Assembly (NCBI GenBank): GCA_951406725.2
Contig: OX597817.1
Location: 66,898,001 to 66,962,000, forward strand
Length of the DNA stretch: 64,000 nt
Source of the DNA: Octopus vulgaris
Lineage: Eukaryota
Reading direction: 5' to 3'
Part shown: in pieces, positions 30,799 through 64,000 of the stretch
Position numbering within the stretch: the stretch's first letter is position 1
Layout of the letters: the number at the start of each line of letters is the position of its first letter
Position numbers and translations under genes: made by a program
The notes under the pieces: model-generated
Told to the model about the DNA's origin: nothing
Databases searched by the model: none
What the model saw: the letters and a program-made list of their open reading frames with translations, nothing else

Positions 30799-30873
<75 letters not shown>

Positions 30874-33800
30874 TTTCCAGAGCAAGACGCTCCTGCATCC
30901 TCTTCTTCTGTAGACATGGCACTGCCTCAGGCCACAATTTCAGTAAAGGTGCCTTCCTTCTAGTCTTTCGATTTGGTCCTCTGGTTCGCCCACGTCAAGG
31001 CTCAGTTTGCTTCAAATCGAATAGCGAGCGACGCAGCGGAATTAACACACTTGATTGGTGCTTTTTCACCAGAAATAATGATGGGGGTCAGGGACTTGAT
31101 TATGGCCCCTCCAGGTTCCGTGTCTTACGACACTTTTAAAACTGAACTCATCAAAAGAACCTTCGACTCTGAGCAGTGGCGAATGCACCATCTTTTAATT
31201 TCTGAAGTGTTGGATGACAAAACGTCGTCACAACTATTACGACGGATGGAACAACTGCTAGGAGATCACACTTGCCTGAAACGTCTACCAACACACAAAT
31301 AATATTGGCATCTACTAAGGAATTGGCCTCTGTCGATGAACTGGACGAGATAGCAGATCGAATCGCTGATGCGGCTAACCTGTTCTCGACGATGGCTCCG
31401 ATATCTTCCATTGATCCTTTTGCTGCTTCCTCGGATTCCTCCGAACTGCTGGAGCTACGCGCACTCGTGACTCAACAGACCACGCAGATACAAACACCCT
31501 CGGCAAATTACAAGGGCTGACATGTCGCAGCCCCTCAGTTCACAACTACTACCGACCCCTTTAATAGACGATATTCAAACTATTCGAGTTTTTGCGGGTG
31601 CCCTTCAGTCTCTGTAACGCAGCGTAGACATTCCAGCGCTTTATGGACATCGTCACAAGAGGCTTACTGTTCGTGTACGCTTACATCAGCGATATACTGG
31701 TAGCAAGTAAATCCGAGGCCGAACACGAAGACCATTTACATCAACTATTCCAGCAGTTAGCTGAGTACGGCATCGTAATCAACACCAGTAAGTGTATTTT
31801 TGGTGTCTCGTCTCTTCCATTCCTCGGCCTTATTGTCAACAAGGACGGAATCCGGCCACTACCTAACAAGATGGAGGCAATAGTCAATTTCCCTATTCCT
31901 ACATCCCTTCGGAAACTGCGCGAAATTTTGGGATTAATTAACTTCAACCGGCATTTCCTACCACACTGCGCCGAAACAGCTCAGCCACTTACATATGTTT
32001 TGCGCAACAAAACAAGGAAGAGAAGACTATAACGTTAGGCGACACAGAGCTGGTCACCTTCAATAAACTAAAGGATGTCCTAGCTAGGGCCATGATGCTG
32101 GTCTACCCCAAACCTGGTGCTCCACTCACTTTACTGGTTGACGCGTCCATGTCCGGAGTCGGTGGTGTCCTTCAGCAGTTGGTTGATGCCGTTTGGCAAC
32201 CATTGTCCTTTTTCTCCAAATGACTTCAGCATGCGGAGACGAAATACAGTACTTTTGGACTTGAGCTACTGGCTGTGTATCTGTCCGTTAAGCACTCCCA
32301 CCATTTGTTAGAATGGTCTGTTTTCAGTATCTACACGAACCATAAACCGCTAGTATATGTCTCCAGAAAAAGACCTGACTGCCATTCTCCTAGAGAAGTC
32401 CGTCACCTCGACTTCATCGCCCAATATTCCTCAGATATTCGGCATATCAAAGGCTCAGACAACTCAGCAGCAAACATGCTTTCATGCGTCCATCTTAACG
32501 CCCTGCACGCTCCAGATACTATCGATCTTCAGCTGATCGCGGCAAATCAGGAAAACGACGAAGAGCTTAATAAGTTCCGGAATTCGTCGTCCCTCAAGTT
32601 CCAGCTGTTCCCATTATCTTCTACATGTCAGATATGGTGCGATACCTCCGCTGGTCACGAGCGCCCTTACGTCCCCAAACAATACCGACGGCATATTTTC
32701 ACTACCCTTCACTGCCTATCACACCCCGGCATTCGTTCCACACAGAAAATGATAACAACTCGTTTTGTGTGGACGAACATTAACAAGGACATCCGCGCTT
32801 GGGTTAAGATTTGCATAGCTTGTCAAAAGGCGAAAATTCAAAGACATGTAAAATCACCTCCCGGTACTTTCACAACACCGGACGCATGTTTTTAACACAT
32901 CCACATAGGTAAAGTTGGATCTCTACCACCGTCCCATAACTATACGCAGCTGTTGATCTGCATCGACCGCTTTTTCCGATGGTCCGAAGCTTTCCCTCTG
33001 TACGATACTTCAGCGGAGATCGTTGCTAAAGCGTTGATATACTGGGTATCGCGTTTTGGTGTCCCTGCAACCATCACGACAGACAGAGGATGGCAATTCA
33101 ATTCGCACCTTTTCAGCGAACTCACGCAACTGCTCGGCTCCAAACACTGCCGCACAACGGCATATCATCCAGCGGCAAACGGTATGGTGGAGAGATTCCA
33201 CAGGCAGCTGAAATCAGCCATACCTGCATGTCCAGACCTAATCAGTCGGATGGAATTCCTTCTGCTTATTCTGCTCGGTATCCGTGTATCTATTAAGGAC
33301 GATATCGGTCACTCACAGGCCGAGTTAGCTTACGGCACCACGGTGGCCCTGTCTGGGCAGATGATTGCTCCAGTTCCTCCACGGGCTATTCCTGATCCCA
33401 CAACTTATGTACATCGTCTCTGTGCATATATGTCCCATCTCTTACCAAACGCACCCCGTTCGCAGAAAACCGACACATATGTCCCCTCGGATATTAACCA
33501 ATCGACGCACGTTTTTATCCGGAACGATGGAATACCATCACAAATCCGTCCGACGTATTCTGGACCATACAGAGTACTACAGAGACGGGAGATTATTTCG
33601 TAGTCGACATAAATGGCAAGCGAAATACTATCAGTATCGATCGATTTAAGAAAGCTATCGTCGAATCCGATTCCGCATCATCATCGTCGACCGTGCACCA
33701 AACCAACACAGTCTCGTCAACACCTCATACAAGTACCGCAACTTCTTCACGGCAAACTCGTACAGGTGAGTAGTTTACAGGCACCAATGCCTTAATTTCT

Positions 33801-34230
33801 ACACGAACACCTACAAGACTTATTTGTTTATTTTCTATCCACTGAACTTCACAAGAACCATACTTTTAACGCTTACATGGTCCTAATTCAATTGCCTGTT
33901 TGTTATATTAAATTAAAATTGATTCTGCTTGCATCCTATCAGACTAAAATGAACTGAACATTTTTTCATAACCTGAATTTTTGTTTGCATGCCTTCTCAA
34001 TTTTATTCATATTTTGCACTTCCACTTTCTTTCAGTTACATTGTTGCACGTTGCATTTTGCATGTACATCTTTTTCATTCATTTTGAAAATATTTGTATT
34101 GTTACACACATACATGCTACCACTGTCACATTTATGTACCACACCATGCTTTTCTCCCTTGTATTTCATGTTTCCTGTGCCCTTGTAGACACAACTCGCC
34201 TCTGTAAGACCCTAGGTTGGTCACGTGTAC
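30330..34230 (+). mobile_element. Decayed Ty3/Gypsy LTR retrotransposon in intron 2 (gag remnant, partial RT, RNase H, integrase)
   Basis: PBS-like TGGTGACCTCG at ~30674. gag remnant LWFAHVKAQF..KTELIKR. RT AYISDILVAS..HEDHL and RNase H VDAS..GVGGVLQQ, YTNHKPL. Integrase HHCC (LHCLSHPG..CIACQ), core ([26 protein letters not shown]) and YSGPY. Protease and RT N-terminus are deleted. Outer boundaries are approximate. Confidence 0.9.
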
Positions 34231-34431: not shown

Positions 34432-34470
34432 AGCAAAACGTATCAAGAAATCGTGAAACCGATGAAAACA
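34432..34470 (+). CDS. Micro-exon (39 nt): KQNVSRNRETDEN
   Basis: Acceptor cttcttcttgttttcAG, donor GTAAGC, phase 1-1, N-V-S sequon. Confidence 0.8.
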
Positions 34471-39198: not shown

Positions 39199-39482
39199 TA
39201 TATCCTCAACCCGACTAAAGCTTTGTGAGTGGACTTCGTACATGGAAACTGAAAGAAGACTGTCGTATATATGTGTATTTGTGTGTGTGTGTGTGTACCC
39301 CCACCATCGCTTGACAACCGATGTTGCTGTGTTTACGTCTTCGTAACTTAGCGGTTCAACAAAAGACAACAATAGAATAAGTACTAGGTTTACCAAGAAT
39401 GAATCCTGGGGTCGATTTGTTCGACTAAAGGCGGTGCTCCAGCATAGCTGCAGTCACATGACTGAAACAAGTAAAACAATGA
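39195..39482 (+). mobile_element. SINE family 1, 5'-truncated
   Basis: Matches the 3' two-thirds of 51828-52210. Confidence 0.8.
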
Positions 39483-39854
39483 AAAACTATGCTATTTTAA
39501 ATCCCGAGTAACGTCGACTACATCTGCTAGTACAGGATATAGTAGAAGCTGTGTATTTTGATTACTTTGAGATGAAGCCTTTGGATAACTATAACAGCTA
39601 GTAACACTAAGCAAACAATGAGATTAAGAGCTACTAATTCTGATCACAATAACCAGTTGTTAACACTATTGATAATCATGTTACGCAGTTTCTACATTAT
39701 ACTGCATTTAAAGAATGAAGACTGAGTGTTGTGATAACTTAAAAAGAATGATTGTGGAAATAGAAAATATGCATGTCGCACGTAAAACAAATGGTAAAAG
39801 GTGTGCTAATATATTTGATATAGAGAATCAAAATTTAATAATTTAAATTGCACC

Positions 39855-41098: not shown

Positions 41099-41137
41099 AA
41101 TACCGTAGATTGATCAGGCAGTTACACTTTTCACGTG
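41099..41137 (+). CDS. Micro-exon (39 nt): KYRRLIRQLHFSR
   Basis: Branch-like TACTAAT, acceptor ttttttacaattttcAG, donor G|GTAAGA, phase 1-1, open. Confidence 0.7.
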
Positions 41138-41787: not shown

Positions 41788-44700
41788 TGGTTTCAAATTT
41801 TGGTACAAGGCCAGGAATTTTGGAGGTGGGGCAAGTCGGTTGCATCAACTCCAGTTTTCATCTGATACCCTTTTTTTTATCGATCCCGAAGGGTTAAAAG
41901 GTAAAGCTGACCTCGGTGAAATTTGAACTCAGAACGTTAAGACGGACGGAATACCGCTAAGAAATTTGTCCGGCATGCTAACGATTCTACCAGCCCACCA
42001 CCCGGTTCATATGACACTATTTTACGTATTTAATCATTTCTAGTTTTATATTAGATTGCGTGGTCCGAGATAATAGCTTGACGCAGTATTCAGTAGTATA
42101 TTTTCATCATATACATACCTGGCCTCTTATGAAACCAGTATTAAACATCAGTCTTCGTCACATATGTTGAGACACAGACACATCTACGCTACCTAAGGCA
42201 GAGTGAATGTAGTTAAAATCAGAAGTTTAGAAAACACGCATATAAGTCTGGAAATAAATGCTGTTTATAAAGACTACCATGTACGTTAGACTGCCATGGA
42301 TATCCGTATGAATTCTTCTAAATAATAAATATTTAAAAAATATATTTTTGCTTTTTTTTTTTCGTGTTTTCAGAATTAGATTCCGATGAAAACAGTAAGT
42401 TTATATTACTTTTTACATTTGGGAGGAAGTATGATTTTTCGATTTACAAAATCTTTGTGTATAATGATGAGTTTGCTTAAATAAGTCTTTCTACAATTCT
42501 TCTTTTCTTTTACTCAACATCCTTCCTACGCCTGCTGTGAGAGGGTGGGTGTTTGAGTGGATTGGTGTCAAAAACAAGTTGCAATGTGGAGCTGTGTAAT
42601 CTGCTACTGGTGAAATGTTTACTTTTTTCTATGGTCAAGAAATATGATTTACAATATAATATAGTTACATATAATTGTGTGATTTGTAGGGCAGAGCTTC
42701 AACTGAACGTATACTGTATGATATTTTTGAGTGTTCTGAATCTTACCAAACTAATCAAGTTTAGCTTTGCTTCGAAACGTTAATTAGTGTTTTACATCAC
42801 AAAGTTGTTGCAATCGACGATGTTGTTGTAGTTAAAAAAATTATATGTGTAGTGTGAAGATTATAATTATTTGTTTTCATATATGTAGTTCGAAACTTTG
42901 CTTCATGTAGATAGTGTTTGTAATATTGTGGTGTTAAAGAGACTATGTTGCAATCTCTTTATTAGTTGATGTTTTCAATGCACTTAGATTGAATAATTAT
43001 CTCTGCTATAGACACACAAAACCTGAAATTTGGCAAAAAGGATGAGTCACTTATATCAACCTTTGTGTGTAAAGCTGGCACTTATTTATCGACCCCGAAA
43101 AGGTAAAAGACAAAGTTGACCTCAGCGAGATTTGAACTTAGAACGTAAAGGAAGAAGAATTGCCGCTAGGTATTTTGTCCGATGCGGTAACGACTCAACC
43201 AGCTTGCCGCCTTGCACTTTGATTTACTAATTCTTTCTACTATAGGCACAAATCCTGAAAATTTATGGGGAGGGGCCTAGTCGATTATATGGACTCAAGT
43301 ACGCAACTGTTATGTATTTTATCGACCTCCAAAGGATGAAAAGCAAAGTCGACCTCTGTGGAATTTGAACTCAGAACATTAGAATGAGGAACTACTACTA
43401 ACGTGCGAGCGATTCTGCAAGTTCGCCATCAGGATTTAGATTAAATAATGATTTTAGATTTTTGTATGAAGCTAGCAATTTCGGGGGATGGGGCCTAGTC
43501 AACTACATCGACCTTAGTATGCAATTGGTACTTATTTTATCGACCCAGAAAGGATGAAAGGCAAAGCCGACCTCGGCGGCATTTGATCTCAGAACTAAGC
43601 TTTTTCTTTTCAGTTTCAAATTAACAATATTCTAGTATTCAACACGACATATTGATTTTAAATTTTGGCACAAGGTCAGAAATTTGTGGGAAGGGATTAG
43701 GTCTATTACATCGATACCAGCGTTCTACTGGTTCTTATCTTATGGATCCCGAAATGTTGCAAAGCAAAATCGACCTCGGCGACATTTGAACTTAGAACGT
43801 AACATTGGAAAAAATGTTGCTAAACTTTTTCCGGCGCGAAAATGACTTTGCCAGTTTGCCTCCCTATTCTATACAATATATTAACAAACCATTAGCTTAA
43901 TATTCAAACGTTTCCTTGTGCTTTAAAATTAAAACAGAGAGCTTGTGCTTACGTATTTATTTACGGTTTGTTGTATTATAGTTACACAGATAATGCAACG
44001 TCAATAATAATTTCTGATTTAGGCACAAAACTAGCAACTTTGACGGGAGCGTTAGTCAATACCACAGTGGTATTACCACCAACTCCAATACTAGATCGGT
44101 ACTTTATTTTATCAATACCAAAAGAGAGAAATCTACAGTTGACCTCAATGGGACTTAAACACAAGATGTAAAGAGCTAGAACAAAGAGCGCAAGGCACTT
44201 TTTTCCGACTCTAATGATTTTGCCTGTCCGCCTCCTTGAATCGCAACATTAATAATCCGTTATGATCAATCAAGAGGTTGCTGACAAACTGACAACTTAT
44301 TAATCTACATTTATCAGAGACTAATCACTCCAATCTATGTATCGAACAGTCTCTTCAGTCACTATCATACAGATGAAGACAAATTAATCGGACAGGATTA
44401 AGGCGAGACTAAATGCTATAAAACATTAAGAGTAGGTTTCTAACATTGTTGCTTTAAATAATAGAAATAAGATTTTGTTAATTTCTGATAAAATAACATT
44501 TTTTAAATTCAAGAATAAAAGATAGCAATTTTAATGGCAATGAAAACTTTCTGGTAGAAAAATTAGTATAAATAAAATAGTGTATTCTATCAAATATTGC
44601 TTCAAATTCTCACATAAGGCCTGCAGTTTTAGGAGGTGGTTAGTCGATTATATCGACCTTGGTATTTAAACTGGTACTATATTTTATCGACCCCGAAATG

Positions 44701-45468: not shown

Positions 45469-45474
45469 AGCTAA
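45469..45474 (+). CDS. Possible 6-nt micro-exon (KL)
   Basis: cattttactacAG|AGCTAA|GTAAGT, frame-preserving phase 1-1. Too short to be sure. Confidence 0.3.
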   Translation, partial: S

Positions 45475-45853
45475 GTAAGTTTATTTTCTATGGAAGTTGA
45501 GTTTGTGGATTGAATCTACCTTGCACATTGTTTATGGGAAGAGGAAAGGTAAAATATGATCACTGTTGGTTTATTATAATTCAAGTAATATAATTGAATT
45601 CAGGTAACACTAAACGCCATTTTAATTGTTCAATATTTGTTTAGTAGATACAATATATGAATTTTATAGATTTTACAGCAAACTTGTAAATCACCGTTTA
45701 CATTCATAGAAAGATACTTATCAATCCTTACAATCTTGAGTAAGTCGTCATGTTCAACTTCCTTATTTGTCATACACTAAAAATTCAAGACCAGATATTT
45801 ATGTAATACTTAGTTAAAGTATCATTATAAGAGATATACGTTATATCTTCCAG

Positions 45854-45901
45854 CTACTAAAACTATCTTGAATACAACTGACACAATTGAAGCAGCAAGC
45901 A
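45854..45901 (+). pseudogene. Donor-less older copy of the 48-nt A exon (TKTILNTTDTIEAAS)
   Basis: Acceptor atcttccAG and homology to the A exons are retained. The expected GTAAGT is replaced by TGTTGA. Confidence 0.55.
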
Positions 45902-46375
45902 TGTTGATAAACATGTACATTTCGTTGAGTGTCTTGTGTCTTGAATGTTATGTTGGTTTCACCAATGTAGTTTATTCGATCTCTGTCCCCCCCACCTCTG
46001 TGATTCTCTACGGAGAAGCACTGCAAAACAAAGACGCACCACGTGTCAGTACGACTTTACTTGACGACGTCGGTCGGCAGACTGATGCCCGAGGGTTGCA
46101 TCAAGTGGTTTCTAGCGGCGGAAGCCCGAACTACAACGGGCTTATCCAACAGTGAACACTTCCTCTTAATTTTGGTTACCTCAACGTAGCTGACAGAATC
46201 AACCATTGAATAATATTTGTACATTGTTTATGGAAGGGATAATGAAAGTAAAATACGATTAATTTCAGGCAGCACTAAACACTATCAGACCTTGATGCCA
46301 TTTCTTCCAAATCTTCATCCTAATATTCGTTATTTGATTTTGCAAGGCAAGATATAACTCATTGTTTTATTTTAT

Positions 46376-46778
46376 ACTAGCAGTATCGCCCGGCGTTGCT
46401 CGGATTTGTAAGGGAAATAACTATATAAGCATTTTTAGAGAGTTATAGCCAAAAAATAGCAAAAAAAAAAGCATTAAAAATGGAAAGAAAATGATGGTAA
46501 ATTTTTTTTAAATCGTTGACTCATCGTAGACATTTTTAGAGAGTTACTTCCCTTATATAATAGCGAAAAAATGCGTTAAAAATGGGGAAAAAATGATGGT
46601 AAATTATTTTTAAAATCGTAGACTCATCGTAGACGCGCGCTAATACCCAGAAGGGCTAGATATGAATCACGACTATAAGATACCCGCTTTTGGTTAAACT
46701 GCACCGCAAAATGTGGGAGTAGTTAGGAATCTAAGTCGTAGGAGACAGATACACAACTTCAATTTTATATATAAAGAT
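46376..46778 (+). mobile_element. Helentron-associated (HINE-like) insertion in array unit 1
   Basis: ACTAGCAGTATCGCCCGGCGTTGCTCGG ... TTTTATATATAAAGAT. Absent from the other units, which show the empty T-rich site with no clear TSD. Confidence 0.75.
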
Positions 46779-46979
46779 TTTATAGAACAAATTAGCGATA
46801 ATTTATAGCAAGAAACCTATCAGTAAATATATGTTCCTTACAATTTTGCGAAGACCATAAATACTTAAATTCTTAACTTATCTTACAATTGGAAAGTTCA
46901 GACAATATATTCATGTAGTAAATACTAAATCATTGAAATAATTATCATAATCACAAAACAATAATGTTATATGTTCCAG

Positions 46980-47027
46980 CTACTAAAACTGTATCGAATA
47001 AAACTTCCACGACTGAAGCAACAAACA
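46980..47027 (+). CDS. Array exon A1 (48 nt): TTKTVSNKTSTTEATN
   Basis: atgttccAG / GTAAGT, phase 1-1, Thr/Ser-rich with an N-K-T sequon. Confidence 0.8.
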
Positions 47028-47374
47028 GTAAGTCGATATGCATTTACCAATCATTTAAATATTTTCTATCACATTAAACAACAACTTGTAATTTGCGCCT
47101 ATTTTGAGACAAATGCCTCTTGTAAAATGGTCATACACTAGCTAACGAATACGTACTTCGAATCTGACTAGATGCTATGAAATGAAACTCTTAAGGAGAG
47201 AAAGTTGAATCATTACAGCGTGTTACCAATTTTACCACCGATTGTCCTTGAAAGGATGTTTAATATTAAATAAGCAATGATTTTCAGATTCAACCATTTA
47301 TTATCCTAGGAAGAAACATAATTAGTTATGTGTGTTTTTTTTTAATGTCTTACAATATTTCTTTCGAACTGTCG

Positions 47375-47416
47375 ATATTCGGAAATACACAAAAGATACA
47401 CGTAATGTGGCAAGGT
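47375..47416 (+). pseudogene. Array exon B1 (42 nt), acceptor-dead (CG). Equivalent copies at 49376-49417, 51366-51407 and 53703-53744
   Basis: tttctttcgaactgtCG replaces AG. The donor GTAAGT and open frame are retained. Paralogous to exon C. Confidence 0.6.
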
Positions 47417-47644
47417 GTAAGTTGATATTCATTCTAGCATTTCGGAATAAAGTCCAGTGGTTACCATTTCTACCATCCATAATCGTTAAAAAGAATGCTT
47501 AATATATTAATGTAATTAAAATAACCCCGCAGCTTCATAGATTTAACCATCTACTATACTAAACAGAAACAGTAAAATTAATAATTATTAGCTAAGTGAT
47601 TTGTGATTTTCTTTTCTGAAAAATCATATTTCTTTCGATTGTAG

Positions 47645-47686
47645 ATAATACGATAAATACAAAAGATTCTCTTGAAAAACCAACTG
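47645..47686 (+). CDS. Array exon C1 (42 nt): NNTINTKDSLEKPT
   Basis: tttctttcgattgtAG / G|GTAAGT, phase 1-1. Confidence 0.8.
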
Positions 47687-48994
47687 GTAAGTTGATATTA
47701 AGATATTCTCATCTTCATTAGTTATTATTTTAACATTGTGACTCTTTAGAAGAAGACAAGTTACATAGGTGGACGACTACAGCGAAGACAGAAATATAAT
47801 TAAAGATCGAATACATTTATTAGTCATTATCGTATCCTAGAAAGATATCTTTCATGTAGACTTTGACTTCTTTTCACAAGTCTTGCGTGAAAATTGTGAA
47901 ACGTGATCGGGAATAGATATCCTACAAAAGTTCAAATGAAGTAACTGTACAGATTCTGGTTATCGAACTGAGGAAATTGTTTAATACGGAAGACTGGAAA
48001 TGATTGGCCATAAATAGGATTTACTCTTCTAAGAACGAATGTATGGTATCCGTCATTAGTTGTTTTAGTCGTGAACTTTGCTGATCAGGAATCAACCCAG
48101 TTTAAATATTATTCGAAAACCTCATTTTCGATTGACCGGCGAGATGATGGAAATAACTGTGAATAGTAATAGTAACAGTAATTATTACCACAGTAATATA
48201 TCTATTTCATGATGTTTGACGAAAAACATTATTTTACAGCAGAAGCAGTTGTGTGAATTTTTGTATGAAAATGTATATAAACATATTCATTATGAGATAG
48301 TATTTCTTATAGATTTACGTTTTTTTTAAATCACAAAAATATATCTACTATACGATATACTAGTCCCAGACGATATACCAGTACCTCTTTAGGTCTGGTC
48401 AGTAGAAGTATCCACTGATAATCACATGCTAAACCAAACTCTGCCGTTACTGATAGAACAAACTAATGTTTGTAAAAACCACCGATGTCGCAGTTGACCG
48501 ACAACGTGAATATAAAATTCGTTATGTGCAACGGAAGCAGTATTAGTTTGAAATAGCAATCTGTGTATCACATGCCAACAGATACATAATATAAAAGATG
48601 AATTGAAACGTGACACTGAATATATTCATATTCATAATTGGTTTCATCAAAACAAGATAAACACTTTCGTTTTTACAACAACCACGTAACAATTTACAGT
48701 AATAATATTTTCATAAATAGACGAAAATCATTATCCTAATATTGATTTTTTGATTTTGCACGGCAAGATATAACTCATTGTTTTATTTTATTTTGTATAG
48801 TACAAATTAGCGATAATTTATAGCAAGAAACCTATCAGTAAATATATGTTCCTTACAATTTTGTTAAGACCATAAAATCTTAAATTCTTAATTTGTCTTA
48901 CAATTGGAAAGTTCAAACTCTATATTTACGTAGTAAATACTAAATTATTGAAATATTTATTATTAACACAAAACAATAATGTTATATGTTCCAG

Positions 48995-49042
48995 CTACTA
49001 AAACCGTCTCGAATAAAACTTTCACGACTGAAGCATCAAAAA
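48995..49042 (+). CDS. Array exon A2: ATKTVSNKTFTTEASK
   Basis: AG/GTAAGT, 48 nt, open. Confidence 0.78.
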
Positions 49043-49645
49043 GTAAGTCGATATGTATTTACGAATCATTTAAATATTTTCTATCACATTAAACAACAAC
49101 AAATGCCTTTTGTAAAATAGTCACACACCTCCTAACGAATACGTACTTCGAATCCGACTAGATGTTATGAAATGAAACTCTTGAGAAGAGAAAGTTGAAT
49201 CCTTATAGCGCTTTACCAATTTTACCACCCATTGTCTTTGAAGGGTTGTTTAATGTAAATGTAATTACATAACCTATGATTTCCAGATTCAACCATTTAT
49301 TATCCTAGACAGAAATATAATTAGTTATGTGTGTTTTTTTTTTTAATGTCTTACAATATTTCTTTCGAACTGTCGATGTTCGGAAATACACAAAAGGTAC
49401 ACGTAATGTGGCAAGGTGTAAGTTGATATTCATTCTAGCATTTCGGAATAAATCCAGTGGTTTACCATTTCTACCATCCATAATCGTTAAAAAGAATGCT
49501 TAATATATTAATGTACTTAAAATAACACCGCAGCTTCATAGATTTAACCATCTACTATACTAAACAGAAACAGTAAAATTAATAATCATTCGCTAACTGA
49601 TTTGTGATTTTCTTTTCTGAAAAATCATATTTCTTTCGATTGTAG

Positions 49646-49687
49646 ATAATAAGAAGCAAGCAAAAGACTCTCTTGAAAAACCAACTG
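49646..49687 (+). CDS. Array exon C2: NNKKQAKDSLEKPT
   Basis: AG/GTAAGT, 42 nt, open. Confidence 0.78.
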
Positions 49688-50984
49688 GTAAGTTGATATT
49701 TTTAGATATTCTCATCTTCATTAGTTATTATTGTAACATTGTGACTCTTTAGAAGGACGACTAGTGCCGACAGCGTAGACAAAAATATATTTAAAGATCG
49801 AATCTATTTATTAGTCATTATCGTATCCTAGAAAGATATCCTTCATGTAGACATTGACTTCTTTTCACAAGTCTTGCGTGAAAATTGTGAAACGTGATCG
49901 GGAATAGATATCCTACAAAAGTTCAAATGAAGTAACTGTACAGATTCTGGCTATCGAACTGACGAAATTGTTTAATACAGAAGACTGGAAATGCTTGACC
50001 GAAAATCGGATTTACTCTTCTAAGAACGAATGTATGGTATCCGTCATTAGTTGTTTTAGTCGTGAACCTTGCTGATCAGGAATCAGCCCAGTTTAAATAT
50101 TATTCGAAAACCTCATTTTCGATTGACCTGCGAGATGATGGAAATAACTGTAAGTAGTAACAGTGACAGTAATTATTACCACAGTAATATATCTATTTCA
50201 TGATGTTTGACGAAAAGCACTATATTACAGCAGAAGCAGTTGAGTAAAGTTTGTATGAAAATGGATATAAACATATTCATTCTGAGATAGTATTTCTTAT
50301 AGATTTACGCTTTTTAAAATCACAAAAATATATCAGTGCTAGACGATATACTAGTCCCAGACGATCTACCAGTACCTCTTTAGGTCTGGTCAGTAGAAGT
50401 ATCCACTGATAATCACATGCTAAACCAAGCTCTGCCGTGACTAATAGAACAAATTAATGATTGTAAAACCACCGTTGTCGCAGTTGACCGACAACGTGAA
50501 TATAAAATTCGTTATGTGCAACGGAAGCAGTATTAGTTTGAAATAGCAATCTGTGTATCACATGTCAACAGATACATAATATAAAAGATTAATTGAAAGG
50601 TGACACTGAATATCATCATATTCATAATTGGTTTCATCAGAACAAGATAAACACTTTTGTTTTTATGACAGCCACGTAACAATTTACAGTAATAATATTT
50701 TCATAAATATGCAAAAATCATCATCCTGATATTAGTTATTTGATTTTGCAAGGCAAGATATAACTCATTGTTTTATTTTATTTTTTATAGTACAAATTAG
50801 CGATAATTTATAGCAAGAAACCTATCAGTAAATATATGTTCCTTACAATTTTGTTAAGACCATAATGTCTTAAATTCTTAATTTGTCTTACAATTGGAAA
50901 GTTCAAACTCTATATTTACGTAGTAAATACTAAATTATTGAAATATTTGTTATTAACACAAAACAATAATGTTATATGTTCCAG

Positions 50985-51032
50985 CTACTAAAACCGTCTC
51001 GAATGAAACTTCCACGACTGAAGCAACAAACA
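50985..51032 (+). CDS. Array exon A3: ATKTVSNETSTTEATN
   Basis: AG/GTAAGT, 48 nt, open. Confidence 0.78.
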
Positions 51033-51636
51033 GTAAGTTGATATGTATTTACCAATCATTTAAATATTTTCTATCACATTAAACAACAACAAATGCCTTT
51101 TGTAAAATAGTCACACACCTCCTAACGAATACGTACTTCGAATCCGACTAGATGTTATGTAATAAAACACTTAAGGAGAGAAAGTTGAATCATTTCAGCA
51201 TTTTATCAATTTTACAACCCATTGTCCGTGGAAGAGTGTTTAATGTAAATGTAATTACATAACCTATGATTTTCCAGATTCAACCATTTATTATCTTAGA
51301 CAGAAATATAATTAGTTATGTGTGTTTTTTTTTTAATGTCTTTCAATATTTCTTTCGAACTGTCGATGTTCGGAAATACACAAAAGGTACACGTAAAGTG
51401 GCAAGGTGTAAGTTGATATTCATTCTAGCATTTCGGAATAAAGTCCAGTGGTTTACCATTTCTACCATCCATAACCGTTAAAAAGAATGCTTATTATATT
51501 AATGTAATTAAAATAACCCCACAGCTTCATAGATTTAACCATCTACTCTCTTAAACAGAAACAGTAAAATTAATAATTATTAGCTTAGTGATTTGTGATT
51601 TTCTTTTCTGAAAAAACATATTTCTTTCGATTGTAG

Positions 51637-51678
51637 ATAATAAGAAAAATACAAAAGATTCTCTTGAAAAACCAACTG
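51637..51678 (+). CDS. Array exon C3: NNKKNTKDSLEKPT
   Basis: AG/GTAAGT, 42 nt, open. Confidence 0.78.
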
Positions 51679-51827
51679 GTAAGTTGATATTTAGATATTC
51701 TCATCTTCATGATTTATTATTTTAACATTGTGACTCTTTAGAAGGACGACTAGTGCCGACAGCGTAGACACAAATATAATTAAAGATCGAATCCATTTAT
51801 TAGTCATTATCGTATTCTAGAACGATA

Positions 51828-52210
51828 GGCGCAGGAGTGGCTGTGTGGTAAGTAACTTGCTAACCAACCACATGGGTCCGGGTTCAGTCCCACTGCGTGG
51901 CATCTTGGGCAAGTGTTTTCTGCTATAGCCCTTGTGAGTGGATTTGGTAAACTGAAAAGAAGCCTGTCGTATATATTTATATATATATACATGTGTGTTT
52001 TGTGTGTCTGTGTTTGTCCCCCTAGCATTGCTTCACATCCGATGCTGGTGTGTTTATGTCCCCGTCACTTAGCGGTTCGGCAAAAGAGACCGATAGAATA
52101 AGTACTGGGCTTACAAAGAATAAGTCCCGGGGTCGATTTCCTCGACTAAAGGCGGTGCTCCAGCACGGCCGCAGTCAAATGACTGAAAGAAGTAAAAGAG
52201 TAAAAGAGTA
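51828..52210 (+). mobile_element. SINE family 1 inserted in array unit 3 only
   Basis: GGCGCAGGAGTGGCTGTGTGGTAAG A-box, GGTTCAGTCCC B-box and (GTAAAAGA)n tail. The other units read ctagaaagatatc uninterrupted. Confidence 0.9.
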
Positions 52211-53323
52211 TATCCTTCATGTAGACTTTTCACAAGTCTTGCGTGAAAATTGTGAAACGTGATCGGGAATAGAAATCCTACAAAAGTACAAATTAAGTAA
52301 CTATACGGATTCCGGTTATCGAACTGACGAAATCGTTGAATACAGAAGACCGGAAATGATTGGCCGTAAATATGATTTACACTTCTAAGAACGAATGTAT
52401 GGTATCCGTCGTTAGTTGTTTTAGTCGTGAACCTTGCTGATCAGGAATCAGCCCAGTTTAAATATCATTCGAAAACCTCCTTTTCGACTGACTGGTGAGA
52501 TGATGGAAATAACTGTGAGTAGTAATAGTAACAGTAATTATTACCACAGTAATATATCTATTTCATGATGTTTGACGAAAAATACTATTTTACAGCAGAA
52601 GCAGTTGAGTAAAGTTTGTATGAAAATGGATATAAACATATTCATTCTGAGATAGTATTTCTTATAGATTTACGCTTTTTAAAATCACAAAAATATATCA
52701 GTACAAGACGATATACTAGTCCCAGACGATATACCAGTACCTCTTTGGGTCTGGTCAGTAGAAGTATCCACAGATAATCACATGCTATACCAAGCTCTGC
52801 CGTTACTGATAGAACAAACAAATGATTGTAAAACCACCGATGTCGCAGTTGGCCGACAACGTGAATATAAAATTCGTTATGTACAACGGAAGCAGTATTA
52901 GTTTGAAATAGCAATCTGTGTATCACATTTCAATAGATACGTAATATAAAAGATTAATTGAAAGGTGACACTGAATATCATCATATTCATAATTGGTTTC
53001 ATCAGAACAAGATAAACACTTTCGTTTTTACAACAACCACGTAACAATATGCGAAAATCATCATCCTGATATTCGTTATTTGATTTTGCAAGCTAAGATA
53101 TAACTCATTGTTTATTTTATTTTGTATAGTACAAATTAGCGATAATTTATAGCAAGAAACCTATCAGTAAATATATGTTCCTTACAATTTTGTTAAGACC
53201 ATAAAATCTTAAATTCTTAATTTGTCTTACAATTGGAAAGTTCAAACTCTATATTTACGTAGTAAATACTAAATTATTGAAATATTTATTATTAACACAA
53301 AACAATAATGTTATATGTTCCAG

Positions 53324-53371
53324 CTACTAAAACCGTCTCGAATAAAACTTTCACGACTGAAGCATCAAAAA
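53324..53371 (+). CDS. Array exon A4: ATKTVSNKTFTTEASK
   Basis: AG/GTAAGT, 48 nt, same sequence as A2. Confidence 0.78.
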
Positions 53372-53972
53372 GTAAGTCGATATGTATTTACGAATCATTT
53401 AAATATTTTCTATCACATTAAACAACAACAAATGCCTTTTGTAAAATAGTCACACACCTCCTAACGAATACGTACTTCGAATCCGACTAGATGTTATGAA
53501 ATGAAACTCTTGAGAAGAGAAAGTTGAATCATTATAGCGTTTTACCAATTTTACAACCCATTGTCCTTGAAGGGTTGTTTAATGTAAATGTAATTACATA
53601 ACCTATGATTTCCAGATTCAACCTTTTATTATCCTAGACAGAAATATAATTAGTTATGTGTGTTTTTTTTTAATGTCTTACAATATTTCTTTCGAACTGT
53701 CGATGTTCGGAAATACACAAAAGGTACACGTAAGGTGACAAGATGTAAGTTGATATTCATTCTAGCATTTCGGAATAAATCCAGTGGTTTACCATTTCTA
53801 CCATCCATAATCGTTAAAAAGAATGCTTAATATATTAATGTACTTAAAATAACACCGCAGCTTCATAGATTTAACCATCTACTATACTAAACAGAAACAG
53901 TAAAATTAATAATCATTCGCTAAGTGATTTGTGATTTTCTTTTCTGAAAAATCATATTTCTTTCGATTGTAG

Positions 53973-54014
53973 ATAATAAGAAGCAAGCAAAAGACTCTCT
54001 TGAAAAACCAACTG
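53973..54014 (+). CDS. Array exon C4: NNKKQAKDSLEKPT
   Basis: AG/GTAAGT, 42 nt, same sequence as C2. Confidence 0.78.
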
Positions 54015-55312
54015 GTAAGTTGATATTTTTAGATATTCTCATCTTCATTAGTTATTATTTTAAAATTGTGACTCTTTAGAAGGACGACTAGTGCCGACAG
54101 CGTAGACAAAAATATATTTAAAGATCGAATCTATTTATTAGTCATTATCATATCCTAGAAAGATATCCTTCATGTTGACATTGACTTCTTTTCACAAGTC
54201 TTGCGTGAAAATTGTGAAACGTGATCGGGAATAGATATCCTACAAAAGTTCAAATGAAGTAACTGTACAGATTCTGGTTATCGAACTGACGAAATTGTTT
54301 AATACAGAAGACTGGAAATGCTTGACCGAAAATCGGTTTTACTCTTCTAAGAACGAATGTATGGTATCCGTCATTAGTTGTTTTAGTCGTGAACCTTGCT
54401 GATCAGGAATCAGCCCAGTTTAAATATTATTCGAAAACCTCATTTTCGATTGACCTGCGAGATGATGGAAATAACTGTGAGTAGTAACAGTGACAGTAAT
54501 TATTACCACAGTAATATATCTATTTCATGATGTTTGACGAAAAGCACTATATTACAGCAGAAGCAGTTGAGTAAAGTTTGTATGAAAATGGATATAAACA
54601 TATTCATTCCGAAATACTATTTCTTATAGATATACGTTTTTTAAAATCACAAAAATATATCAGTGCTAGACGATATACTAGTCCCAGACGATCTACCAGT
54701 ACCTCTTTAGGTCTGGTCAGTAGAAGTATCCACTGATAATCACATGCTAAACCAAGCTCTGCCGTGACTAATAGAACAAATTAATGATTGTAAAACCACC
54801 GATGTCGCAGTTGACCGACAACGTGAATATAAAATTCGTTATGTGCAACGGAAGCAGTATTAGTTTGAAATAGCAATCTGTGTATCACATGTCAACAGAT
54901 ACATAATATAAAAGATTAATTGAAAGGTGACACTGAATATCATCATATTCATAATTGGGTTTCATCAGAACAATATAAACACTTTTGTTTTTATGACAGC
55001 CACGTAACAATTTACAGTAATAATATTTTCATAAATATGCAAAAATCATCATCCTGATATTAGTTATTTGATTTTGCAAGGCAAGATATAACTCATTGTT
55101 TTATTTTATTTTTTATAGTACAAATTAGCGATAATTTATAGCAAGAAACCTATCAGTAAATATATGTTCCTCAAAATTTTGCAAAGACCATAAAATCTTA
55201 AATTCTTAATTTGTCTTACAATTGGAAAGTTCAGATTCTATATTTATGTAGTAAATACTAAATCATTGAAATACTTATCATAATCACAAAACAATAATGT
55301 TATATTTTCCAG

Positions 55313-55360
55313 CTACTAAAACCGTCTCGAATAAAACTTTCGCGACTGAAGCATCAAAAA
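55313..55360 (+). CDS. Array exon A5: ATKTVSNKTFATEASK
   Basis: attttccAG/GTAAGT, 48 nt, open. Confidence 0.78.
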
Positions 55361-55691
55361 GTAAGTCGATATGTATTTACGAATCATTTAAATATTTTCT
55401 ATCACATTGAACAACAACAAATGCCTTTTGTAAAATAGTCACACACCTCCTAACGAATACGTACTTCGAATCCGACTAGATGTTATGAACTGAAACTCTT
55501 GAGAAGAGAAAGTTGAATCATTATAGCGCTTTACCAATTTTACCACCCATTGTCTTTGAAGGGTTGTTTAATGTAAATGTAATTACATAACCTATGATTT
55601 TCCAGACTCAACCATTTATTATCCTAGACAGAAATATAATTAGCTATGTCTTTTTTTTTTAATGTCTTGCAATATTTCTTTCGAACTTTAG

Positions 55692-55733
55692 ATGTTCGGA
55701 AATACACAAAAGGTACACGTAAGGTGGTAAGGT
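55692..55733 (+). CDS. Array exon B5 (42 nt), the only B copy with an intact acceptor: NVRKYTKGTRKVVR
   Basis: ttcgaactttAG / GTAAGT. An internal in-frame alternative donor GTAAGG at 55719 would give a 27-nt form. Confidence 0.5.
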
Positions 55734-55961
55734 GTAAGTTGATATTCATTCTAGCATTTCGGAATAAATCCAGTGGTTTACCATTTCTACCATCCATAAT
55801 CGTTAAAAAGAATGCTTAATATATTAATGTAATTAAAATTACCACGCAGTTTCATAGATTTAACCATCTACTATACTAAACAGAAACAGTAAAATTAATA
55901 ATTATCAGCTAAGTGATTTGTGATTTTCTTTTCTGAAAAATCATATTTCTTTCGATTGTAG

Positions 55962-56003
55962 AAAATAAGAAGCAAGCAAAAGGTTTTCTTGAAAAACCAA
56001 CTG
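55962..56003 (+). CDS. Array exon C5: KNKKQAKGFLEKPT
   Basis: AG/GTAAGT, 42 nt, open when joined to A5. Confidence 0.75.
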
Positions 56004-57410
56004 GTAAGTTGACATTTAGATATTCTCATCTTCATTGGTTATTATTTTAAAATTGTGACTCTTTAGAAGGACGACTAGTGCCGACAGCGTAGACACAAAT
56101 ATAATTAAAGATCGAATCTATTTATTAGTCATTATCGTATCCTAGAAAGTTATCCTTCATGTAGACTTTGACTTCTTTTCACAAGTCTTGCGTGAAAATT
56201 GTGAAACGTGATCGGGAATAGATATCCTACAAAAGTTCAAATGAAGTAACTTGTAGGGATTCTGGTCATCGAACTGACGAAATTGTTTAATACGGAAGAC
56301 TGGAAATGATTGGCCATAAATAGGATTTACTCTTCTAAGAACGAATGTATGGTATCCGTCATTAGTTGTTTTAGTCGTGAACTTTGCTGATCAGGAATGA
56401 ACCCAGTTTAAATATTATTCGAAAACCTCATTTTCGATTGACCGGCGAGATGATGGAAATAACTGTGAATAGTAATAGTAACAGTAATTATTACCACAGT
56501 AATATATCTATTTCATGATGTTTGACGAAAAACACTATTTTACAGCAGAAGCAGTTGTGTGAATTTTTGTATGAAAATGTATATAAACATATTCATTATG
56601 AGATAGTATTTCTTATAGATTTACGTTTTTTTTAAATCACAAAAATATATCTACTATACGATATACTAGTCCCAGACGATATACCAATACCTCTTTGGGT
56701 CTGGTCAGTAGATAGTATCCACTGATAAATACATGCTAAATCAAACTCTGCCGTCACTGATAGAACAAACTAATGATTGTAAAATCCACCGATGTCGCAG
56801 TTGACCGACAACGTGAATATAAAATCCGTTATGTACAACGGAAGCAGTATTAGTTTGAAATAGCAATTTGTGTATCACATGTCAATAGATACATAATATA
56901 AAAGATTAATTGAAAGGTGACACTGAATATATTCATATTCATAATTTGTTTCATCAGAACAAAATAAACACTTTCGTTTTTATGACAGCCACGTAACAAT
57001 ATGCGAAAATCATCATCCTAATATTCGTTATTTGATTTTGCAAGCCAAGATATAACTCATTGTTTTATTTTATTTTTTATAGTACAAATTAGCGATAATT
57101 TATAGCAAGAAACTTATCAGTAAATATACGTTCCTTACAATTTTGCGAGGACCATAAATGCTTAAATTCTTAATGTGTCTTACAATTGGAAAGTTCAGAT
57201 TCATCAAAACAAGATAAATACTTTCGTTTTTACGACAAGCACGTAACAATTTACAGTAATAAAATTTTCATAAATATGCGATTCTCATAACGTTGAGATA
57301 AATCATGAATGTTAAATTTCCTTCATTGTCATACTGTGACAAATCCCAGCTTCCACATTTACGCAAGAAATATTAACATTATAAGAAAATTATAACATAT
57401 TATTTTGCAG

Positions 57411-57458
57411 ATGTTCCGAAAATCGCGTACAAAGTTATTTCGACTGAGGTGAAAGATC
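57411..57458 (+). CDS. Micro-exon E (48 nt): DVPKIAYKVISTEVKD
   Basis: tattttgcAG / GTAAGT, phase 1-1. Diverged A-family exon. Confidence 0.8.
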
Positions 57459-57859
57459 GTAAGTCGATATTTTTGATCATTGAATTAGTACCAGAAGATA
57501 TATTTTTTATCATTGAAATAATTCCATCTTATTAAAAGAGCCTTGAAAATTCTATCTGATTTGTCATTCAATTAGCGATAAATACATACTTTGAAACTTT
57601 ATAATATGCGCGTTCTTTCTAACTCAGTTAAATAAGTTAACAAAACTAAATAATTAATTAGTTAATTATGTAGAGGTAACATTGTACATATATTGTGAAG
57701 TGGGTGAGCTGCCACTTCCGTATACTGCTACAAAAGTAGCATTTTTATTGCTAGATCTAGCATTTCTTAGATGTTATTAAGCACATTACACACACACACA
57801 CACACACACACATACTCTTTTAGTCGTTTCAGCTTTGCGGCTGCGATCATGCTGGAGCA

Positions 57860-59440
57860 TCACCGTGGTCTTGCTGATTTCCTCAGTCTGGGGTGTTTCC
57901 CATCACCACTCCTGTATGTGCCTTCGTCCCAGCTGTTGGCCTACTTGGTGTGTAAGAGAGTTTGATTCTGCTGCTCTGGTCTGTACCTCATGTCGGGCTG
58001 TTGGTTCATCCGGTATTGTGGAGAGGAGGATGTCTAGTTCCTTTTTAAAAACATTTACTTCCACCTTATGCAGAATTTTAATTTTTCATGGAAGGGCATT
58101 GAAGAGCTGTGGGCCTTTGAACCCCAGGCTATTGCAGTACTTTGTCCTGAATTTAGATGGAGTGAATGGTACCTTTAGTACAATACAATGGCGTCCAGTT
58201 CTGGCATTTGTATAACACTCAATGCCGAAATTAGTTACTAGCCCTTATCGAGGTTTTAATATGTAGATTATTAAACATCTGTCGCGCCTTTGCTCCAGGG
58301 AGTGAAGTTGCAATTTTATTCAGCCTTTGGCTGTAGCTCATCCGCTGCGCTGTTTCAATCATTTTAGTGTAGTGGCGTTGGACTGCTTCAAGCTCCGCTG
58401 TTAGTTTGGCACTATGTGGTGACCATAACTAGGGCCAGTATTCCAGGCGGCTGAGAACAAAGGTTCCCCATAGGCTCAACATAGTTTTCTTATCCTCTTG
58501 TTTTGAAGAACCTTAGTATCCATCCTGCCAGTTGTCTACACTTTACTACGGTCTTGGTTTAAAAGACTCCGCCGGTTACGACGACGAGGGTCCCAGCTGA
58601 TACGATCAACGGAACAGCTTGCTCGTGAAATTAACGTGCAAATGGCTGAGCATTCCACAGACACGTGTACCCTTAACGTAGTTCTCGGGGATAATCAGCG
58701 TGACACAGAGAGTGACAAGGCTGACCCTTTGAAATACAAGTACAACTCATTTTTGCCAGCTGAGTGGACTGGAGCAACGTGAAATAAAGTGTCTTGCTCA
58801 AGGACACAACGCGTCGCCGGGAATCGAACTCACAACCTTACGATCATGAGCCGAATGCCCTAACCACTAAGCCACGCGCCCTCACGGTCTTGGTAATGTG
58901 CATATGAAATGATGCATCATTGCACATACTGATACCCAAGTTTTTCACTGCTTGTGACTCTCGGTTTGCAGTGCACTCGTGTCCTGTATATGCAGGTTGT
59001 AATGCATTTGTGAGTTGATAGTACAGTGCTTGAAATTTTCCAGCATTAAACTACATGTTATTTACTTCGGCCCACCTATATATCGAATTCAGGTCCCGCT
59101 GTAAGCTTGCGACGACATCTTGATTTTTTATTGCCAGTGAAAATTTTTTATCATCGGTGTTGCTAGTGACAGTTGTTGTCTGAGTGAACTTAGGCATGTT
59201 TAAGAGGGCTATTACGAACAGTAATGGCCCCAGAACAGTTCCCTGGGGGACGCCCCTTAAGATTTGATTTTCTTCGGAAAGGGCACCATTGGCAGCAACT
59301 TCCTGACCTCTGTCTCCAAGAAAGTCATGCAGCCACTCTCCCGGTTTACCAGCAATGCCAAGGTCTCGCAGTTTATGATATATCATGCCATCATCTACTT
59401 TATCAGATGCCTTTGCAAAGTCGAGGTATATCACGTAGCT
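57860..59440 (-). mobile_element. Decayed CR1/L2-group LINE (RT and 3' region)
   Basis: [29 protein letters not shown] (degenerate YADD), LQRDL and downstream VLSRLEYWP.LWSP. Confidence 0.85.
58559..58883 (-). mobile_element. tRNA-derived SINE (family-2-like head) nested in the LINE, with 11-bp TSD
   Basis: TSD ACGGTCTTGGT at 58548-58558 and 58884-58894. Minus strand has GTGGCTTAGTGGTTAGG and GAGTTCGATTCCC boxes. A related decayed copy is at ~44905-45125. Confidence 0.9.
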
Positions 59441-59459
59441 GTAAGAGCTGTGTTAGGCA

Positions 59460-60531
<1,072 letters not shown>

Positions 60532-62066: not shown

Positions 62067-62114
62067 CTTCATATTTCGACATCGATAAAATAATCCCAAC
62101 TGAACCACCACGCG
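62067..62114 (+). CDS. Micro-exon F (48 nt): PSYFDIDKIIPTEPPR
   Basis: tatattttgcAG / G|GTAAGT, phase 1-1. Diverged A-family exon. Confidence 0.8.
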
Positions 62115-62340: not shown

Positions 62341-63052
62341 CATAGGTTCTCAGAGTGGGCGCTACCGCCCCAGCCCTCAGTAGGCGTTGAAACAGTCCAG
62401 ATGGGCGCTGGTGCTTAAGGAGGTGGAGGGGTTGGAGTGGTAGAGAAAAAGGAGGCGTTGGGAGGACGGCAGTGGATTGGGGGACGCTATGAATTTAGGA
62501 TAGTATTACTCTTTACTCTTTTACTTGTTTCAGTAATTTGACTGTGGCCATGCTAGAGCACCGCTTCTAGTCCAGCAAATCGACCCCAGAACTTATTCTT
62601 TGTAAGCCTAGTACTTATTCTATTGGCCTCTTTTGCCGAACCGCGATATTTGGAGGACAAACACAGACACACAAACATATACACACAAACATACATATAT
62701 ATACATATATACGACGAGTTTCTTTCAGTTTCCGTCTACCAAATCCACTCACAATGCTTTGGTCGACCCGAAGCTATAGTAGAAGACACTTGACCAAGGT
62801 GCCACGCAGTGGGACTGAACCCGGAACCATGTGGTTGGTAAGCAAGCTACTTACCACACAGCCACTCCTACACCTATATTATTATAATATTGTATACAAA
62901 ATATATAATATTATATTAAATATCAAATGATTCATAGTATATATAAATTAGTAAAATATAAAATATTTGTTTATACATAAAACTAGGGGTGGGGGCGCAG
63001 GGGGTATCATGTGGCCATGAGGGGGATAGTTCCAAAAGTTTGAGAAACTCTG
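62341..63052. mobile_element. hAT (Charlie-like) MITE with a nested family-1 SINE (~62508-62875, -)
   Basis: Termini CATAGGTTCTCA ... TGAGAAACTCTG, 8-bp TSD ATGTAGAC / GTGTAGAC. The empty site catgtagac is seen in the array units. Confidence 0.8.
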
Positions 63053-64000
63053 GTGTAGACTGTGGCTTCTTCCCACTAGTCTTGCGGGAATATTTGTCAA
63101 ACGTGATCGGGGATAAAAATCCCACAAATGTTCAACTGAATTAATACGTGTGATTCACGATGTATTGACGCAAAAATGTAATCTATCACAGAAGCAGTTG
63201 AGTAAGTTTTGTATGAAAATGGATATATGCAATTGCGTCCTGAGAGAGTATCTTCTGTAGACGTACGGTGTTAAAAATTGCAAAAACGCATCCGTTCCAG
63301 ACGATACATCAGTCCCACTTTGGTTAGTAGAAATGTCCACCGATAATAGCATGCTAAAACAAAATCTACAGTTACTGATAAACTAAGGATTAAAAAATGT
63401 CTTATGTCGCAGTTGACGACAACGTGAATATAAAATTCGTTATGTGCAACGGAAGCAGTATTAATTTGAAATAGCAATTTGTATCACATATGAACAATTA
63501 CATAATTAAAAGACTAATTCAGCGGGAACACTAAAAATCATCATAATCATAACTGGTTTCATCAAAACCAGATAAACACTTCCGTTTTTACAACCATGTA
63601 ACAATTTACAATAATAAAATTTTCATAAATATACGATTTTCACAATGTTGAGATAAATCATGAATGTTAAATTTCCTTCATTGTCATACACTGACAAACC
63701 CCAGGTTCCACATTTAAGTTAGAGATATTAAACATAAGATAAATATAATATCTTATCTTGTAGATATTTTGATATTTTTGAATAATGTGGTTACGGCTGC
63801 GGTATCTGGAATGAAGTCATATATTTTATCATTGAAATAGTTCCCATCATATTAAAATGTCTTGAAAATTGTATCTGATTGAAGGAATAACTGTCTTTGG
63901 CGTAGATGACATTCAGTTAGTGATAAATACATACTTTGAAACTTGATAATGTGCGCGTTCTTTCCAACTCAGTAGAACAAGTTAACAAAACTAAAGAAAT
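63053..64000 (+). repeat. Older diverged copy of the array unit plus the exon-E flanking region
   Basis: 63053-63600 aligns with the unit's distal intron (aacgtgaatataaaattcgttatgtgcaacggaagcagtatta). 63590-64000 aligns with 57240-57655. Confidence 0.85.
63764..63840 (+). other. Exon-E paralog with intact acceptor but lost donor: dead exon or terminal exon DILIFLNNVVTAAVSGMKSYILSLK*
   Basis: tcttatcttgtAG acceptor. At +48 the GTAAGTC donor reads TGAAGTC, and the frame runs to TAG at 63838-63840. Confidence 0.35.

Follow-up and report, generated by a model that had tools for sequence, protein, structure and literature searches.

A tandemly duplicated 2-kb exon-intron cassette in a probable mini-exon gene of Octopus vulgaris

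The window analysed in our study, a stretch of 64,000 nucleotides of Octopus vulgaris DNA (GenBank assembly GCA_951406725.2, contig OX597817.1, positions 66,898,001 to 66,962,000 of the forward strand), was found to contain a tandem array of a cassette of about 2 kb, in which short exon-like segments are repeated together with their introns. The tandem array is real, and its units belong to a longer plus-strand chain of predicted phase-1 mini-exons, from 28989 to 62114. We consider it probable that an exon-intron block of about 2 kb was tandemly duplicated within a likely coding gene of phase 1-1 mini-exons, lengthening a predicted glycosylated and disordered protein. Positions are those of the window, and the features are collected in Table 1.

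Units and segments of the tandem array

Self-comparison of the window showed five full units (U1 to U5) arranged head-to-tail, followed by the remnant of a sixth. The pairwise identity of the units ranged between 91.5 and 98.8%. The maximum was found between U2 and U4, which are not neighbours, whereas neighbouring units were 92.8–94.7% identical. The motif of segment A gave 5 matches against 0 in 100 shuffles, a repetition far above chance. The alignment of the units contained 20 internal indel events, with 0 in segments A, B or C, and two insertions were present. We take the 401-nt insertion of U1 to be Helitron-like; the insertion of U3 presumably resembles a short interspersed element (SINE), its strand being assumed in the same way. 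A tandem-repeat scan found no tandem repeat at the unit junctions, the comparison of U2 with a plasmid collection gave 0 matches, and no Rfam family reached the gathering score anywhere in the 64-kb window, one match in U2 (E=0.61) being far below threshold. In the remnant U6, the initial ~190 nt and the terminal 80 nt of a unit adjoin, with ~1715 nt including A, B and C deleted and 3 nt at the deletion junction common to both sides. In U6 the array has contracted by deletion.

Each unit contained three exon-like segments, A (48 nt), B (42 nt) and C (42 nt), all of a length divisible by three and of phase 1-1, which makes the unit frame-neutral. All ten A and C segments possessed an AG acceptor, a GTAAGT donor and an open phase-1 frame. 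Segment B contained GTAAGT and an open frame in 5/5 units, with the acceptor CG in U1 to U4 and AG in U5 only. B and C are paralogous, their flanks being 73% identical, and an internal duplication of 71% identity in every unit (49212–49315 against 49461–49570 in U2) marks this older duplication. The introns between exons ranged from 601 to 1645 nt. When the 18 candidate exons were joined in all 153 ordered pairs, a stop arose at one junction, solely that of B5 with C5; the other 152 were clean. From the predicted exons, we infer 90 coding nucleotides per unit (A, 48; C, 42). No open reading frame (ORF) of at least 110 amino acids was found within the array on either strand.

An initial annotation of the same stretch had described five tandem units of about 2 kb, ten A and C segments with intact AG, GTAAGT and open frames, neighbouring introns with indels and transposable-element insertions, and protein repeats built from duplicated exon-intron cassettes, not from one large exon. 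The units were borne out by the self-comparison, the splice signals and frames by direct inspection, the intron changes by the 20 indels outside the exon segments and the two insertions, and the origin of the repeats by the lack of a long ORF in the array. Its inventory of the unit was right as to the five units, but segment B, the sixth unit and the older copies A0, E and D' had been missed.

The units were found to have exchanged sequence. In the four-gamete test, which was applied to one assembly, 805 of 2485 pairs among 71 informative sites were incompatible. The site patterns were clustered, with 33 adjacent identical patterns against 17.3 after shuffling (p=5e-5), and one tract of 250 columns contained 2 differences between U1 and U5, against ~20 in others. 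Such incompatible and clustered patterns are probably the signature of gene conversion or unequal crossover. The initial annotation had proposed that repeat number can change both in the genome and per transcript. In the genome, exchange between units is evident and U6 has lost its exons; a skipping of exons would keep the frame in 152 of the 153 pairs.

Twenty-four sequencing runs were listed, of which four were examined, one DNA run (X2) and three presumed RNA runs (X16, X18 and X24). The runs that contain the array numbered 13, in 6 studies, and none was on record as RNA. Words of the array occurred at shares of 0.34–0.47 in runs under four different organism labels. X2 was assembled as contigs, in which depth is not copy number and variants are dropped. 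Its contigs were present in 30/30 bins. The segment peculiar to U1 was found at a contig depth of 55.8, with flanking contigs at 44.5–67.1, and a contig at 57100–57334 crossed the U6 junction with 0 differences at a depth of 46.9, both being depths that resemble single-copy sequence. A 254-nt contig, which differed from U2, U4 and U5 at 2, 5 and 3 places, respectively, had a depth of 177, ~3x single-copy; this fits three copies of the U2/U4/U5 type, the number present in the window. In two positions (depth 177 and 144) letters of U5 stood on a U2 or U4 background, a hint that the array of X2 may be composed differently. We did not accept these hybrid contigs as evidence that conversion has occurred between animals, since variants are lost, and similar copies may be fused, when contigs are built.

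Table 1. Features of the array and of the predicted mini-exon chain, with window positions
Feature	Position	Strand	Description
e1, predicted mini-exon	28989–29027	+	39 nt, phase 1-1
e2, predicted mini-exon	34432–34470	+	39 nt
e3, predicted mini-exon	41099–41137	+	39 nt
e4, predicted mini-exon	42374–42394	+	21 nt; end and upstream intron common with e2
e5, micro-exon candidate	45469–45474	+	6 nt
Phase-1 exon candidate	45710–45739	+	30 nt; counterpart without donor at each unit start
A0, older copy of A	45854–45901	+	38/48 identical to A; donor lost, N-x-T kept
Whole array	46309–57279	+	five full ~2-kb cassettes and a deleted sixth
U1	46309–48724	+	most diverged, 65 private substitutions; holds 401-nt insertion
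Insertion in U1	46377–46777	-	401 nt; 5'-TC and CTAG-3' ends, in an AT site; high-copy in sequencing runs
A1, predicted exon	46980–47027	+	48 nt, phase 1-1, N-x-T sequon
B1	47375–47416	+	42 nt, C paralogue, acceptor CG, likely dormant
C1, predicted exon	47645–47686	+	42 nt, phase 1-1
U2	48725–50714	+	98.8% identity to U4
A2, predicted exon	48995–49042	+	48 nt
B2	49376–49417	+	like B1, acceptor CG
C2, predicted exon	49646–49687	+	42 nt
U3	50715–53054	+	holds SINE-like insertion
A3, predicted exon	50985–51032	+	48 nt
B3	51366–51407	+	like B1, acceptor CG
C3, predicted exon	51637–51678	+	42 nt
SINE-like insertion (presumed)	51828–52209 (approx.)	-	~380 nt, U3 only; related copies at 39223–39490 and 62507–62877
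U4	53055–55042	+
A4, predicted exon	53324–53371	+	48 nt, letter-identical to A2
B4	53703–53744	+	like B1, acceptor CG
C4, predicted exon	53973–54014	+	42 nt, letter-identical to C2
U5	55043–57006	+
A5, predicted exon	55313–55360	+	48 nt
B5	55692–55733	+	the sole B whose acceptor is AG; would encode a basic peptide; candidate for alternative use
C5, predicted exon	55962–56003	+	42 nt; starts with AA, TAA if spliced behind B5
U6 remnant	57007–57279	+	unit start fused to unit end at 57199/57200
D, predicted exon	57411–57458	+	48 nt, phase 1-1
E, predicted exon	62067–62114	+	48 nt; old A paralogue with 26/48 identical positions and 71% identity in the flanks; frame, length and splice sites retained
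Old copy of distal intron of the unit and D	63054–63998	+	75–82% identity; D' from 63764, donor region lost

The mini-exon chain and its predicted product

Without B5, the predicted chain contained 17 exons with 229 codons and 0 stops. Every exon is of a length divisible by three and of one phase, so that a cassette could be gained, lost or skipped without a frameshift. At 11236–11292 (+), a further 57-nt open phase-1 exon candidate with two cysteines was observed; it could belong to this gene as an exon lying further upstream.

If A and C are both included, each unit would add 30 residues rich in Thr, Lys and Asn. The predicted repeat part contained 32% S+T, 21% K+R and 3.4% P, and an N-x-T sequon was conserved in 5/5 A segments and in A0. 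The repeat part was strongly hydrophilic, with a grand average of hydropathy of -1.36 and no hydrophobic 19-mer; in the part of the chain seen, there was no membrane segment, and VWD, SEA and transmembrane domains and a signal peptide were likewise absent. Exons that are symmetric in phase 1 are characteristic of extracellular proteins. The threshold for a proline-threonine-serine (PTS) domain is about 40% S+T and 5% P per 100 residues, and the best 100-residue window of the predicted product contained 37 S+T and 3 P. The predicted repeat would work like a mucin stalk; as it falls below this threshold, we do not class it as a mucin. In our reading, the product would serve as a disordered and glycosylated spacer in a protein that is secreted or exposed at the surface, the ends of which fall beyond the part identified.

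In the mechanism that we propose, unequal crossover and gene conversion would drive the copying of units and the exchange between them. A and C would enter the mRNA and provide 30 residues per copy, and the N-x-T of each A could be N-glycosylated. The product may act as a spacer or in the manner of a mucin, its length and charge outweighing the exact sequence, and the birth and death of exons would carry little penalty in a frame-neutral chain.

Evidence for coding and alternative explanations

Coding was examined with a strand test, in which candidates of up to 60 nt with strong splice sites were collected and A and C were counted once each. On the plus strand, 14/22 candidates had a length divisible by three and were open in phase 1, against 2/16 on the minus strand (p=0.0025). 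No such excess was found in phase 0 (6/22 against 4/16) or phase 2 (7/22 against 6/16). The old paralogues A and E retain AG, GT, length and frame at a flank identity of 71%, which occurred at 0.04–0.06 in a neutral simulation; A0 and D' were decayed by the same test. This bias of strand and phase and the old A/E pair give better support for coding than conservation within the array. As read from the letters of the window, the locus documents duplication, patchwork exchange, the loss of exons in U6, apparently live or dead older copies (E, A0, B1 to B4 and D') and the frame neutrality of the predicted chain.

Several observations weigh against a coding array. The variable columns in the alignment were 224/1783 in the introns, 7/48 in A, 6/42 in B and 10/42 in C; taken together, A and C (17/90) were no less variable than the introns (Fisher p=0.10). 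The values of pN and pS were about equal (A, 0.15/0.18; C, 0.23/0.25), and neither column variability nor pN/pS gave a signal of purifying selection among the five copies of A and C. At the variability of the introns, the probability of invariant AG and GTAAGT would be 0.12 (0.34 for AG/GT only), that of 90 nt free of frameshifts 0.52 and that of no stop 0.57, with a product of ~0.03–0.10 for splice sites, frameshifts and stops. The argument of the initial annotation from intact sites and frames to selection is therefore weak. Segment B possesses its donor and frame in 5/5 units despite the CG acceptor in four, and intact-looking signals are thus cheap at such an age. The acceptor of A was below threshold in a rough matrix scan. 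Some plus-strand candidates of the strand test are paralogous (e2/e4, A/E and B/C) and some lie in transposon remnants; the partial paralogy means that 14/22 overstates their independence and is an optimistic figure. The window yielded no start exon, signal peptide or stop exon.

The list of joints and the protein libraries belong on the same side. No exon-exon joint was found among the joints listed for the contigs of X16, X18, X24 and X2, with 701 others falling outside that list, because interspersed repeats filled the tables of joints, loose ends and pieces. Cover was counted in 18 bins of 526 nt (47260–57750), leaving out 4 bins swamped by the two insertions. The A bins were covered in 1/4 (X16), 3/4 (X18) and 3/4 (X24) cases, the B/C bins in 0/4, 2/4 and 1/4, with zero in the bins of C2 and C4, and the intron-only bins in 2/9, 2/9 and 3/9, respectively. 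Over the three runs, 13/27 exon-bearing and 7/27 intron-only bins were covered (p=0.16), and with bins of this width cover cannot be assigned to an exon and speaks neither for nor against expression. Protein word searches with the A2 and E frames gave 0 candidates, and a search with an alignment of the upstream exons gave 18 candidates, 0 of them at E<=10. No homologous protein was found in these three word searches or in a HMMER scan over 1.84 billion representatives, and Pfam gave 0 families in the 5 exon-spanning frames scanned. HMMER matches to repeat proteins of a leafhopper and an abalone (E of 2e-4 and 5e-4) were rejected as chance and unrelated. Each protein query covered one exon flanked by intron, and a relative with a single repeat would therefore have escaped. 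A five-repeat model would score E=3e-11 in the HMMER scan, yet none was found; the five-repeat form is therefore not among the representatives of the library. It is either unannotated, hidden behind a repeat-less representative, or not made.

In one alternative explanation, the gene is expressed but most cassettes are skipped or used singly, as silent pseudo-exons or mutually exclusive exons, giving a protein without five 30-residue repeats. The missing purifying signal in A and C, the public protein sets in which a multi-A protein was expected and not found, and the dead copies common at this locus (A0, B1 to B4, D' and U6) agree with it; in a survey, tandem exon duplicates are also linked to mutually exclusive choice (PMC9013439). 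Against it, introns of 601–1645 nt pose no steric bar to joint inclusion, the full GTAAGT is present in 10/10 A and C segments, and joint inclusion is in frame. We regard this explanation as rather doubtful.

It is quite improbable that the array is neutral duplicated DNA and that the mini-exons around it belong to a gene in decay or to a host transcript without coding function. Exon divergence at or above the intron level and the lack of a homologue in the searches, or of a Pfam family in the 5 frames scanned, would suit this explanation. The strand- and phase-specific excess of open exons of suitable length, the 229 chained codons without a stop and the exon features kept by the A/E pair speak against it, and no Rfam family at gathering score was found in the window that would account for the amplification of introns.

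An assembly artefact, with read errors or haplotypes laid in tandem, which the initial annotation had named as a possible refutation, is hardly credible: the near-identity of U2 and U4, the lack of an X2 contig across a whole unit and the 254-nt contig that exactly matches no unit of the window would fit it, but the differences are mostly substitutions (238 biallelic columns against 20 indel events) and the two most similar units are not neighbours, which fits neither noise in the reads nor one haplotype entered twice; one insertion is present in U3 alone, adjacent units differ far more than U2 and U4 do, and the X2 run supports the array through the sequence specific to U1, the U6 junction and the stretch at about three times the single-copy depth.

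Relation to known repeat genes and neighbouring elements

Three features of a cassette-repeat gene were found at this locus, namely exons repeated with their introns head-to-tail, a frame-neutral unit and exchange between units. Several precedents have been described. In SmPoMuc of Schistosoma mansoni, a 27-bp exon and its introns form tandem repeats of ~1 kb that are >93% identical; they evolve in concert by conversion and unequal crossover, and repeat number varies by individual and transcript (PMC2576457). The likeness lies in an exon repeated with flanking introns as tandem genomic units. However, SmPoMuc has one exon per unit, whereas the units here have two and a dormant third, and variation between animals is hypothetical here. 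SmPoMuc also forms a multigene family, with trans-splicing, a hammerhead ribozyme in the intron and spacers of microsatellite sequence; of the features of that family, protein searches gave no sequence homology here, the unit junctions no tandem repeat and Rfam no match. Human LPA KIV-2 is a two-exon cassette of 5.5 kb (exons of 160 and 182 bp) present in 1 to >40 copies (PMC4378929). Both are two-exon tandem cassettes with one protein repeat per copy, predicted in our case. KIV-2 encodes a folded kringle with very little variation, whereas here 90 nt of low-complexity sequence would be coded per 2 kb, and the copies are 91–99% identical.

Chicken Muc13 has at least 12 mucin-type repeats of 20 residues with one exon each, and alternative splicing was put forward by the authors as a means of controlling length (PMC1552070), much as in the initial annotation. 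Unlike the predicted product, Muc13 is a PTS mucin proper, which has a signal peptide, an SEA domain and a transmembrane domain; none of these was seen in the window. The leucine-rich repeat (LRR) arrays of Tetrahymena consist of 90-bp tandem exon/intron units of one intron phase, for which unequal crossover was proposed (PMC6564038). The 90 coding nucleotides per unit (predicted here) and the single intron phase are shared, whereas the folded product, the single exon per unit, the phase 2 and the thousands of genes are unlike our array. The survey of tandem exon duplication reports that some copies are unannotated and lays stress on mutually exclusive single exons (PMC9013439), whereas multi-exon cassettes are found here. 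In frog FIM-C.1, polymorphism arises by alternative splicing (PMC7177656).

The initial annotation had set the locus apart from typical mucins. This contrast is not new: SmPoMuc and chicken Muc13 already have the layout and, between them, both sources of variation, proposed or shown, and together with LPA KIV-2 and Tetrahymena they make the idea a known design. The mechanism is known, and our view of the growth of repeat proteins is accordingly unchanged. The gene is not in the literature searched: no paper on such a gene was listed for octopus tandem exon duplication or octopus mucin exons, most subscription papers lying outside the search. The additions here are the dormant B with its exception in U5, a sixth unit reduced by deletion, and older copies in a nested arrangement. 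The locus is a compact worked example of recent (99%), middle (92–95%) and old (about 70–80%) duplications in one gene, in which intact, dormant and deleted exon copies adjoin, and the gene is apparently absent from public protein sets. Should its expression and its variation in length be borne out, the gene would be a candidate for a variable glycoprotein specific to the lineage, and would offer a natural experiment on how one acceptor change (CG or AG in B) switches an exon off or on.

A further-reaching version, which we hold to be unlikely, is a variable tape of mini-exons, that is, an orphan gene in which animals differ in the number or mosaic of cassettes, exons are freely skipped in frame, and U5 carries a switch between B5 and C5, because both together make a stop. 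If true, it would give a hypervariable secreted protein, with the birth, dormancy, reactivation and death of exons at three time depths.

Other elements were observed in and around the chain. The intron after e1 contained a hairpin at 29601–29680 with a perfect 15-bp stem (-34.3 kcal/mol, z=-6.8, 0/200 shuffles) and no Rfam match; it is possibly a small-RNA precursor or an inverted-repeat remnant. The e1-e2 intron also contained, at about 30500–34200 (+), a broken retrotransposon of the long terminal repeat type, with RVT_1, RT_RNaseH, Integrase_H2C2 and rve in separate frames, a domain order that we take to suggest Gypsy. RVT_1 remnants, probably of the long interspersed element type, were found at 57800–59452 (-), between D and E, and at 4054–4626 (-). 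The D-E intron contained an (AT)n array of ~1 kb (59517–60531, 510 copies). At 1440–2850 and 6583–6784, a family of inverted repeats of ~250 nt, 72–91% alike, was present around a degenerate (TAACCC)n tract at 1791–1902.

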